Source: Escherichia coli
GTDB taxonomy: Bacteria; Pseudomonadota; Gammaproteobacteria; Enterobacterales; Enterobacteriaceae
Strand: one strand, 5' to 3'
Length of the DNA stretch: 64,000 bases
Assembly (NCBI RefSeq): GCF_001677475.2
Contig: NZ_CP015229.1
Notes under the pieces: generated by a model
Database searches by the model: none
The model's input: the letters and a program-made list of their open reading frames with translations, nothing else
Told to the model about the DNA's origin: nothing
In this document: positions 56,141 through 56,859 of the stretch, piece after piece
How positions within the stretch are numbered: position 1 is the first letter of the stretch
How the letters are laid out: each line of letters opens with the position of its first letter
Program-made: the position numbers and the translations under genes

Positions 56141-56290
56141 CGGGTCCTTTCCGGCGATCCGGTAGGCTACGGGGCGGCGACCTTGCGGATTTTCGCTATT
56201 TATGAGCCTTTTCGGGTTGGTGGTGGTGGTTTTGTTTTTCGCTCTATCTCTATGAATAAAAAGGGAAAGATAACACCAACACACCAACCT
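56141..56290 (+). other. Lambda-type cos site (cosQ-cosN conserved, cosB divergent)
   Basis: The island sequence CGGGTCCTTTCCGGCGATCCGGTAGGCTACG|GGGCGGCGACCT|TGCGGATTTTCGCTATTTATGAGCCTTTTCGGG compares with the lambda ends ...CGGGTCCTTTCCGGTGATCCGACAGGTTACG|GGGCGGCGACCT|CGCGGGTTTTCGCTATTTATGAAAATTTTCCGG. The 12-nt cohesive-end sequence is identical (56172-56183). Downstream lie GGTTGGTG (56215) and inverted CACCAAC/CACCAACC (56274, 56282) in place of the lambda R boxes. Confidence 0.85.
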
Positions 56291-56316
56291 GAAACCTTAA
56301 CTAAGTGGGGATATTG

Positions 56317-56859
56317 ATGAAATCGCACCTGATGAACAAAAAAACTATGGCGCAAAGCTGCCGCGTAAGTGCGACAGCGTTCGACAAGTGGGGAGTAACT
56401 CCCGTTGAGCGTAAAGGCCGTGAGGCGTTTTATGATGTTGCCAGCGTGATAGACAATAGGGTTAACAATGCAATTAACCAGCTTACAAACGACAAAGGCG
56501 AGATTGATGATGATGAACTTTTACGCGTAAGAATCAGATTAATGACGGCCCAGGCGGAAGCGCAGGAACTTAAAAACGAGCGCGAACGCGGCGAGGTGAT
56601 TGATACAAAGTTTTGCATCTACGCGATTTCAAAACTGGCGAGTCAGATTTCATCAATCATGGACAGCCTCCCGCTCACAATGCAAAGGCGCTTTCCCGAT
56701 ATAAGGCCGTATATGCTGGATGAACTAAAAAGGGAAATAGCCAAAGCATGTAACGCATGTGCAAGACTTGACGAAAACCTGCCACAGATACTGGCTGATT
56801 ACCTGATGGAAACTACCGGAAGCGCGCCTGAGAAGTTGCTACAGAACAAAGGCGAGTAA
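56317..56859 (+). CDS. terS: Terminase small subunit, lambda Nu1 family
   Basis: About 180 aa. MNKKTMAQSCRVSATAFDKWGV...REAFYDVASVI parallels the Nu1 wHTH MEVNKKQLADIFGASIRTIQNWQ...NEVLYDSAAVI. LMTAQAEAQELKNERERGEVIDTKFCIYAISKLASQISSIMDSLPLTMQRRFPD parallels LTRAQADAQELKNARDSAEVVETAFCTFVLSRIAGEIASILDGLPLSVQRRFPE. The start is ambiguous (56305 GTG, 56317 ATG with GGGG SD, or 56332 ATG). Confidence 0.85.
   Translation: MKSHLMNKKTMAQSCRVSATAFDKWGVTPVERKGREAFYDVASVIDNRVNNAINQLTNDKGEIDDDELLRVRIRLMTAQAEAQELKNERERGEVIDTKFCIYAISKLASQISSIMDSLPLTMQRRFPDIRPYMLDELKREIAKACNACARLDENLPQILADYLMETTGSAPEKLLQNKGE

Follow-up and report, generated by a model that had tools for sequence, protein, structure and literature searches.

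The cos-packaged phage-inducible chromosomal islands (PICIs) found in Escherichia coli have so far been explained by one mechanism, that of Rpp, worked out on the island EcCICFT073. This island carries a lambda-like cosQ and cosN together with a different cosB, and its RppA protein binds the small terminase subunit (TerS) of the helper phage, blocks recognition of the phage cos and directs packaging to the island cosB, a route for which the helper terS is required (PMC6092414, PMC6739421). At bp 48-65, Murialdo and Feiss placed a proposed 'R3-PICI', and they emphasized that the Rpps, at 135-154 aa, are 30-40 residues shorter than TerS and are devoid of the domain that binds the large terminase subunit, TerL (PMC9026076). 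A 2018 paper stated that 'some' Gram-negative PICIs carry a terS homologue, the 'terS homologs' being merely coloured in its maps (PMC6092414). The TerS of the staphylococcal pathogenicity islands (SaPIs) pairs with the helper TerL (reviewed in PMC6739421). Here we analyze a 64,000-nucleotide stretch of E. coli contig NZ_CP015229.1 (assembly GCF_001677475.2), hereafter the window, whose positions 56141-56859 a sequence-only reading had described as a packaging-redirection cassette. As judged by gene content and boundaries, the element holding these positions is an EcCICFT073-like Gram-negative cos PICI of 11.0 kb at tRNA-Pro. It is a satellite with a helper-type cosQ and cosN, its own cosB and its own TerS, and to this extent the earlier description stands; the supporting argument, a C-terminus conserved with lambda, is wrong for this island. 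We consider it probable, if well short of certain, that this is a packaging module in which an island-encoded TerS of the Nu1 family replaces Rpp, binds the island's own cosB and recruits a gpA-type TerL from the helper. What the DNA shows directly is presented first, namely how the island is built, which homologies it has, how its parts are conserved and that it has no TerL.

The cos region and its putative recognition box

The late region of EcCICFT073 (NC_004431) is syntenic, one gene after another, with that of the window island and consists of capsid c1499, decoration c1500, a small open reading frame (ORF), cos1, rppA (144 aa), an inverted cos2 and c1504. In both islands a helper-type cosQ-cosN-I2 block is followed by a non-phage cosB and then by a recognition gene; directly after cos1, where EcCICFT073 has rppA, the window island has a complete TerS. 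The features of this segment are as follows.

56141-56294, + strand: cos region
56141..56218, + strand: helper-type cosQ-cosN-I2 block, equivalent to lambda -30..+47 (ungapped identity; kept in all related islands and phages)
56172..56183, + strand: cosN cohesive-end sequence GGGCGGCGACCT (exact match)
56215..56240, + strand: R3-equivalent of the island cosB, with (GGT)4 at 56219-56230 (+48..+59) and then TTTTGTTTTT ((GGT)3 kept in three clades)
56274..56294, + strand: distal inverted arm CACCAAC-A-CACCAACCTGAAA (+103..+123), at the lambda R2 position (inverted repeat with 56210-56222)
56317..56859, + strand: terS, full-length Nu1 family, 180 aa, with an N15-like DNA-binding domain (Pfam, PHROG, BLASTP, ratio of nonsynonymous to synonymous substitution rates, dN/dS)
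56860..56905, - strand: cos2 remnant, inverted (alignment with the Nissle, O157 and EcCICFT073 islands)

Positions 56060-56420 of the window were aligned locally with the joined ends of lambda (NC_001416, right end plus left end). In this alignment, 56141-56218 and lambda -30..+47 form one ungapped block with 68 of 78 positions identical, so that the base-for-base match claimed earlier holds, with 10 substitutions instead of about 8. Against 50,697 phage records, blastn matched this 79-bp block alone, in lambdoid phages, at 87-89% identity (E = 3e-19 to 1e-17), and the match to lambda cannot be due to chance. The 12-nt cohesive-end sequence is, as had been noted, identical to that of lambda, and the window has no second copy of it besides that at 56172-56183, even if one mismatch is tolerated; its flank carries a single base change relative to lambda, C to T at +13. 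The heptamer CGGGTCC at 56141-56147 we take to be cosQ, based on positional homology with lambda. The window hence has a lambda-type cosQ, 12-nt cosN with its flanks and I2, and this block is conserved across all related islands and phages. Counted in the lambda register, positions +1..+60 have 45/60 identities and the next two 60-nt blocks have 25/60 and 17/60, both of which are background. Given the drop after +47 and a lambda R3 start at about +50, the match ends just before R3, consistent with the earlier view that similarity stops where the lambda cosB begins.

Past +47, where identity is at background, no CGTTTCC-type boxes and hence no lambda-type cosB (R3, I1, R2, R1) were found. In their place are the motifs noticed by the sequence-only reading, whose coordinates we confirmed, namely GGTTGGTG at 56215, CACCAAC at 56274 and CACCAACC at 56282, all lying within the region of a 13-nt inverted repeat (56210-56222 / 56282-56294; 12 of 13 positions complementary). 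The sequence GGTGGTGGTGG occurs twice in the 64 kb, compared to 0.01 copies expected. Counted from cosN, the window island has (GGT)4 at +48..+59. Three island clades were compared, i.e., that of E. coli, the Enterobacter/Citrobacter-type helper-embedded islands (TerS 56%), and Kosakonia plus Superficieibacter (TerS 55%), and all three have (GGT)3 at exactly +51..+59, within a surrounding spacer that is unalignable. The R3 of phage N15 has been mapped experimentally at bp 48-60 (PMC9026076). It reads GAGGTTGTTGTTT, that is, (GTT)3 at +51..+59, which places the island GGT box in the same register, and N15-like prophages with their own TerL also have (GTT)3 at that position. As judged from triplet and register, the island cosB is a derivative of the N15-type R3. 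The label 'private' given to this cosB is therefore appropriate in that it is not lambda's, but not in the sense of an unrelated site. The distal arm retains 11-12 of 13 complementary positions in other E. coli islands, and in every clade +117 is the last position of a CCAAC/CCCAC/GCCAC half-site, roughly where lambda R2 lies.

Alternatively, the inverted repeat might not be a cosB bound by TerS but a hairpin, of RNA or of DNA, through which the terS leader affects transcription or translation. Positions 56210-56294 do fold (-40 kcal/mol and z = -3.7 as RNA; z = -3.8 as DNA), and the Nissle allele folds similarly, with partly different inner pairs. However, the R2/R1 boxes of lambda give the same in-silico signal (z = -4.0), and hence we read the signal as that expected from inverted protein-binding boxes. 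Further, two distant island clades keep (GGT)3 without a significant hairpin (z = 0.25 and 1.06), and the position and register of the box agree with the mapped N15 R3 (PMC9026076). A regulatory hairpin thus appears improbable to us, and we favor the GGT box as the putative binding site of the island TerS, the best evidence being that the cosB core co-varies with the DNA-binding domain of TerS across the three island clades.

Two further features of the cos region are worth recording. A reading of the GGT box as a Chi site was rejected for the window, which has GTTGGTGG, one mismatch from Chi; in the Kosakonia and Superficieibacter islands (L014 and L015, ~4895-4910), the box begins with the exact Chi octamer GCTGGTGG. 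In addition, a 10-bp direct repeat, TTGATGAAAT, at 56112-56121 and 56314-56323 brackets the 202-bp cos cassette, the first copy overlapping the upstream gene's stop codon and the second the start codon of terS. This repeat is limited to the window lineage, which also includes the island of Z1323CEC0010, and probably represents chance or a local recombination scar.

The small terminase subunit and its domains

The terS gene starts with an ATG at 56317 and encodes 180 aa, the frame being opened by a GTG at 56305. That this ORF encodes a Nu1 homologue, as proposed previously, is well supported: it matches Pfam Phage_Nu1 (PF07471) at 8.7e-24 (84.4 bits vs. a curated cut-off of 30) and phrog_57 'terminase small subunit' at 9e-53 over residues 1-172, BLASTP aligns its residues 6-166 with residues 3-180 of lambda Nu1 (37% identity, E = 2e-35), and RefSeq labels its homologues 'terminase small subunit'. 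The two proteins are colinear to the C-terminus, the island TerS having 11 residues fewer after helix 3 and a C-terminal extension of ~12 residues. Identity to Nu1 is 42% in the DNA-binding domain, 32% in the middle domain, 45-46% in the C-terminal domain (C-domain) and 38% over the last 40 aligned residues. Since the N- and C-domains show similar identity, TerS is evenly diverged from Nu1, and the earlier picture of a diverged N-terminus joined to a well-conserved C-terminal half does not hold.

Among phage TerS proteins, gp1 of N15 is the closest (47.6% overall), with 60% identity in the DNA-binding domain vs. 42% for lambda Nu1; TerS and N15 gp1 have the AFDKWG recognition helix in common and both are without the 11 residues that lambda has after helix 3. 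The recognition helix reads V-[S/G]-[A/V]-T-AFDKWG in islands vs. I-S-V-Q-AFDKWG in phages, and K9, C15 and R/K16 are further island-specific residues. Island and phage TerS share an invariant central segment, R-x-R-L-x2-A-x-A-x-A-x-E-L-x-N. The DNA-binding domain of Nu1, as defined by nuclear magnetic resonance, aligns with residues 6-46, and the predicted secondary structure, strand-helix-helix-strand-strand-helix, is in keeping with a winged helix-turn-helix. Two structural matches were discarded: an ankyrin match from a single-sequence PDB search was spurious, and the match of the TerS profile to 6HN7_B and 1J9I was circular because lambda Nu1 is in the profile.

Comparison of the window and Nissle alleles gives a dN/dS of 0.18, and terS is under purifying selection. 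For the same pair, dS rises from 0.20 in the DNA-binding domain to 0.64 in the C-terminal part, so that the 3' half has three times the value of the DNA-binding domain, which indicates a recombinant origin for a gene maintained by selection. Within the island family, DNA-binding domains are 67-96% and middle domains 58-96% identical, and both cluster by island vs. phage. The C-domain of the window TerS is 79% identical to that of Nissle, but identity is only 38-39% when it is compared with the Enterobacter-type or Kosakonia islands, and the C-domain of the Superficieibacter island is 73% identical to lambda Nu1 and 39% to the window TerS. Family-wide, these identities mark the C-domain as the mosaic part of TerS. 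The combination of a private DNA-binding domain with a helper-matching C-terminus, which the sequence-only reading had attributed to the window, is accordingly visible in the family; in the window island itself, the C-domain is 45% identical to lambda.

As for the helper type, the 55-56% terS relatives belong to helper-embedded PICIs that sit inside gpE, in prophages whose FI, Z, U, V, G/T and H genes are of the lambda type. On the Enterobacter/Citrobacter-type and Kosakonia contigs L009-L012 and L014, the island is followed by a truncated piece of Phage_cap_E and then by FI-Z-U-V-G/T-H; the published prototype of the helper-embedded PICIs, 11capE, was described as having no terS. E. albertii, Pluralibacter and Trabulsiella carry N15-like prophages in which gpA homologues (65-87% identical to lambda gpA) directly follow terS, and the TerS C-domain of an E. 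albertii prophage is 51% identical to that of the window. The genomic context suggests lambda-like prophages as the likely helper type.

The position of terS, which directly follows the PICI cos1 and shares locus and backbone with rppA, also brings up the possibility that TerS acts as Rpp does. That is, TerS might work mainly by forming mixed oligomers with the helper TerS, block recognition of the phage cosB and reach TerL only through the helper TerS, which Rpp is known to need (PMC6092414, PMC6739421). The invariant central segment makes mixed assemblies conceivable, and the divergent C-domain (best phage match, 55%) does not point to a TerL partner. However, Rpp must heterodimerise with the helper TerS and has no TerL-binding C-domain, whereas the window protein is a full-length homologue, colinear with Nu1 through its last residue, and its whole C-domain has been kept under purifying selection, unlike in the Rpps (135-154 aa; PMC9026076). 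At least one island has a lambda-type C-domain (the 73% case), which is sensible only if the domain is used. Nor do the proteins resemble each other in sequence: BLASTP gave no alignment of TerS with RppA at E <= 100, hhalign of a profile of Rpp relatives against the island TerS profile returned a probability of 0.3%, and the TerS profile did not match the RppC chain of PDB 6HN7. Hence, we regard poisoning of the helper TerS as unlikely and the direct capture of a helper TerL as the better account of this protein.

Homology between Rpp and the island TerS was rejected, neither BLASTP nor hhalign having found any, and a derivation of Rpp from this TerS would have synteny as its sole support. 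The cosB cores differ as well, with (CAC)4 at +54..+65 in EcCICFT073 vs. (GGT)4 at +48..+59 in the window island. The (CAC)4 corresponds to L004 2611-2622, where bp 55-63 read ACCACCACC; this is the reverse complement of the (GGT)4 box, shifted by ~6 bp, though Rpp and TerS have no sequence similarity.

The island, its relatives and their prevalence

An exact repeat search found the 17-nt direct repeat CTCTCGTGCCGACCAAA at 47602-47618, where it is the 3' end of tRNA-Pro(GGG), and at 58597-58613, for a unit length of 10,995 bp. The element hence combines an integrase and direct att repeats within the ~10-15 kb of a PICI, alpA and a primase/replication module with rightward transcription (the island genes listed are all on the + strand), and a helper-type cosQ/cosN with a non-helper cosB. 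Apart from the cos region and terS, its features are as follows.

47540..47618, + strand: tRNA-Pro(GGG) and attL (ARAGORN, Rfam tRNA, exact repeat search)
47807..49066, + strand: tyrosine integrase (Pfam Phage_integrase, Phage_int_M, Arm-DNA-bind_3)
49566..49772, + strand: AlpA-family regulator, 68 aa, in the integration zone (Pfam Phage_AlpA, 4.5e-08)
51114-51413, + strand: DUF4222 gene, upstream of the primase (Pfam DUF4222)
51410..53215, + strand: D5/P4-alpha-type primase-helicase of the island replicon (Pfam D5_N, DUF5906, Pox_D5)
53745..54111, + strand: ssb, frameshifted (Pfam SSB; alignment to the intact L003 copy)
54329..55369, + strand: lambda gpE major capsid homologue, 346 aa, with the ATG as in RefSeq relatives (Pfam Phage_cap_E, 3.8e-41; phrog_29; RefSeq relatives)
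55379..55720, + strand: lambda gpD head-decoration homologue (Pfam HDPD, 2.3e-15; phrog_49)
55732..56115, + strand: second AlpA-family helix-turn-helix protein (AlpA2), 127 aa, directly upstream of cos (Pfam Phage_AlpA, 1.4e-08; phrog_2790)
56933..57214, + strand: 93-aa ORF, homologue of EcCICFT073 c1504 (phrog_1561, 1.3e-55; synteny; 83-87% identity)
57681..58052, + strand: PerC-family regulator, accessory cargo (Pfam PerC, 7.6e-23)
58597..58613, + strand: attR, 17-nt repeat copy (exact repeat search)

TerL, portal, tail and lysis families had no match among the ORFs of the window island (Pfam, PHROGs), and tblastn revealed no lambda gpA homologue in the related island loci; the window island thus encodes TerS without TerL. 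The 93-aa ORF follows terS or rpp (plus cos2) in all E. coli islands examined, irrespective of module type, and the Superficieibacter island has a partial match to it after terS; it is a candidate packaging accessory or interference factor. The place of the second AlpA-family protein is taken in Nissle, O157 and EcCICFT073 by a hypothetical protein of 137 aa that is unrelated to it; the AlpA-family protein might act as a late regulator or as an accessory of packaging. The Rfam search across the island returned the tRNA alone, and a scan of 55600-57400 gave no sigma-70-like promoter. Outside attR, between the island and narP, an 863-aa autotransporter of the Ag43/AIDA type is encoded at 58713-61304, the Nissle counterpart of which is a frameshifted fragment.

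The island is a mosaic. Its capsid, decoration and AlpA2 proteins are 84-86%, 72-77% and 69-74% identical, respectively, to those of helper-embedded islands, and its capsid is only 55-56% identical to those of Nissle and O157, whereas terS and the 93-aa ORF are 83-87% identical to Nissle/O157 and terS only 55% to the helper-embedded islands. From this pattern, cos looks like a recombination boundary. Related islands have, between terS or rppA and the 93-aa ORF, a full second, inverted cos (cos2) with a phage-type cosB and repeated R boxes (L007 ~9740-9950, L008 ~9710-9920, L004 ~3110-3345). What remains of cos2 in the window island is cosQ2 plus the initial 8-9 nt of cosN2, fused to the stop codon of terS, whereas cosB2 and the remainder of cosN2 are deleted; the Z1323CEC0010 island has the same ~180-bp deletion, and both are natural delta-cos2 variants. 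In ssb, 56 bp are deleted in comparison with L003, an island that is 96% identical to that of the window and has an intact 140-aa copy; the reading frame changes after about residue 85, so that the conserved tip of the C-terminus, ...DNIPF, is no longer in frame.

Based on the frameshifted ssb and the truncated cos2, it could be argued that cos and terS are themselves inert leftovers of a decayed lambdoid or N15-like prophage with no role in packaging; the island also carries stray gpE- and gpD-like head genes, whose deletion in EcCICFT073 gave no phenotype (PMC6092414). Against this view, the terS ORF is intact and constrained (dN/dS as reported above), the cosB core is conserved while its flanks diverge, and the module has a wide distribution at a constant place in att-bounded islands. 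Specifically, cos plus terS was found in 762 of 5426 complete E. coli genomes (14%) at a coverage of at least 80%, its hosts including Nissle 1917, O157:H7 and avian pathogenic E. coli (APEC) strains. Islands of this type occupy the same tRNA-Pro/narP locus in E. coli Nissle and a site next to phoQ in O157:H7. The module also occurs in at least four other genera, in the same place within att-bounded islands of ~10-11 kb that differ in integrases and replicons; a contig scan of species-representative genomes with a single protein had matched nothing, and it was the scan with an alignment as query that succeeded. An inert relic is therefore, in our assessment, very improbable, even more so than a hairpin in the leader.

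Genes of the rppA/B type were found in 97-110 complete E. coli genomes (~2%), a DNA-based count that RppC-type genes would escape. A literature search covering Nu1-type PICI TerS, SpLE2 packaging and recent work on PICI terminases yielded no paper characterising the TerS module. With 14% vs. ~2%, the commonest packaging module of these islands thus appears to be one that is uncharacterised in the literature we found.

Proposed mechanism and comparison with known systems

The model that we favor, an island TerS that captures the helper TerL directly, would operate as follows. A lambdoid helper would induce the island, which would replicate to concatemers. The N15-type winged-helix domain of TerS would then bind the island's own cosB at the (GGT)4 R3-equivalent (+48..+59), probably joined by the inverted arm near +110..+123 as part of the binding site, and its C-domain would dock the gpA-type TerL of the helper, the island having none. 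TerL would use the helper-type I2 and cosN to introduce the 12-nt staggered nick at 56172-56183 and would terminate at cosQ. Four units of 11.0 kb amount to 44 kb, or ~91% of the lambda genome, and would fill a lambda-sized head; 44 kb falls within the lambda packaging window. This length is consistent with the published statement that the size of a cos island has to be an exact fraction of that of the helper genome (PMC10530653). Inferred parts of this model are the binding of cosB by TerS, the capture of TerL, the lack of any need for the helper TerS, the interference with the phage and the packaging of multimers.

It is important to note that several observations weigh against this model or narrow it. 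No match to the IHF consensus at 8/9 or better was found in the cosB spacer of the window island by a scan that did detect the I1 of lambda, and hence a lambda-like bent R3-I1-R2 complex is not supported. The AlphaFold2 model of TerS, based on an alignment of 17 sequences, has a predicted local distance difference test score (pLDDT) of 52.7 and is too poor to confirm the fold. The island is also partly decayed, given the ssb frameshift and the cos2 truncation. Finally, similarity of the C-domain does not assign a helper or a cognate TerL, the best match among the 50,697 phage records being 55%, and the 45% identity to lambda is in the range seen between Nu1 and the TerS of CFT073 prophage 4 (37%, 26/70). 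To our knowledge, the terminase subunits of lambda and phage 21, which are of similar divergence, are not interchangeable. Based on this and on the divergence of the C-domain, lambda itself may not be the helper.

For the cos PICIs of E. coli, the principle has been published before, Rpp being the recognition protein there (PMC6739421, PMC9026076), and the kind of system is not new. What appears to be new is the full-length TerS of the N15 type, the change of one base per triplet in R3, the modular C-domain and the fact that the module is far commoner in E. coli than the characterized Rpp module. More tentatively, and with the odds in our view somewhat against it, the Nu1-type TerS module could be the main, and possibly the ancestral, form of cos-PICI piracy, a self-sufficient two-part adaptor that does not need the helper TerS, with Rpp as a later, reduced derivative at the same locus. 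Under this hypothesis, the first part, the island DNA-binding domain, would owe a specificity split off from that of N15-type phages to G replacing T in each triplet of R3 and T replacing Q in the recognition helix, and the second part, the C-terminal TerL-docking domain, would be swapped by recombination to match the gpA-type helper that is locally available.

The TerS module bears directly on the origin of Rpp, a question that the Rpp authors left open. Further, the three-position change from GTT to GGT, together with a few substitutions in the recognition helix, offers a natural minimal system for cos-terminase specificity, and the swappable C-domain could serve the study of how helper range evolves. 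For engineered PICI delivery vehicles, helpers deleted for terS would be expected to package a TerS-type island and to yield lysates free of phage, if direct TerL capture is true.

Among known systems, lambda has the cosQ, cosN and I2 to which those of the window island are 87% identical, a TerS that is homologous end to end, and terS downstream of cosB as well; the window island differs in having neither the lambda R boxes nor a match to I1. N15 has a (GTT)3 R3, the cosN GGGCGGCGTCCG, a lambda-like C-domain (83%) and its own TerL, compared to the lambda-type cosN, (GGT)3, divergent C-domain and lack of TerL of the window island. Capsid-forming PICIs (cf-PICIs; e.g., EcCIEDL933), helper-embedded PICIs and the window island are all enterobacterial PICIs with captured lambdoid late genes. 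However, the cf-PICIs encode TerL, portal, protease and head-tail connectors of their own, none of which the window island has, its genes of this kind being only those for the gpE-like, gpD-like and TerS proteins. The SaPI TerS, in turn, works in headful (pac) packaging, belongs to an unrelated TerS family and is accompanied by a separate inhibitor, Ppi, whereas the window island is of the cos type, with defined ends and the need for a helper-compatible cosN and cosQ. Yet the pac SaPIs (e.g., SaPI1 and SaPIbov1) also combine a satellite TerS and a recognition site of their own with the absence of a large terminase, and their logic would be the same as that of the window island: TerL is borrowed, and the address label is changed.

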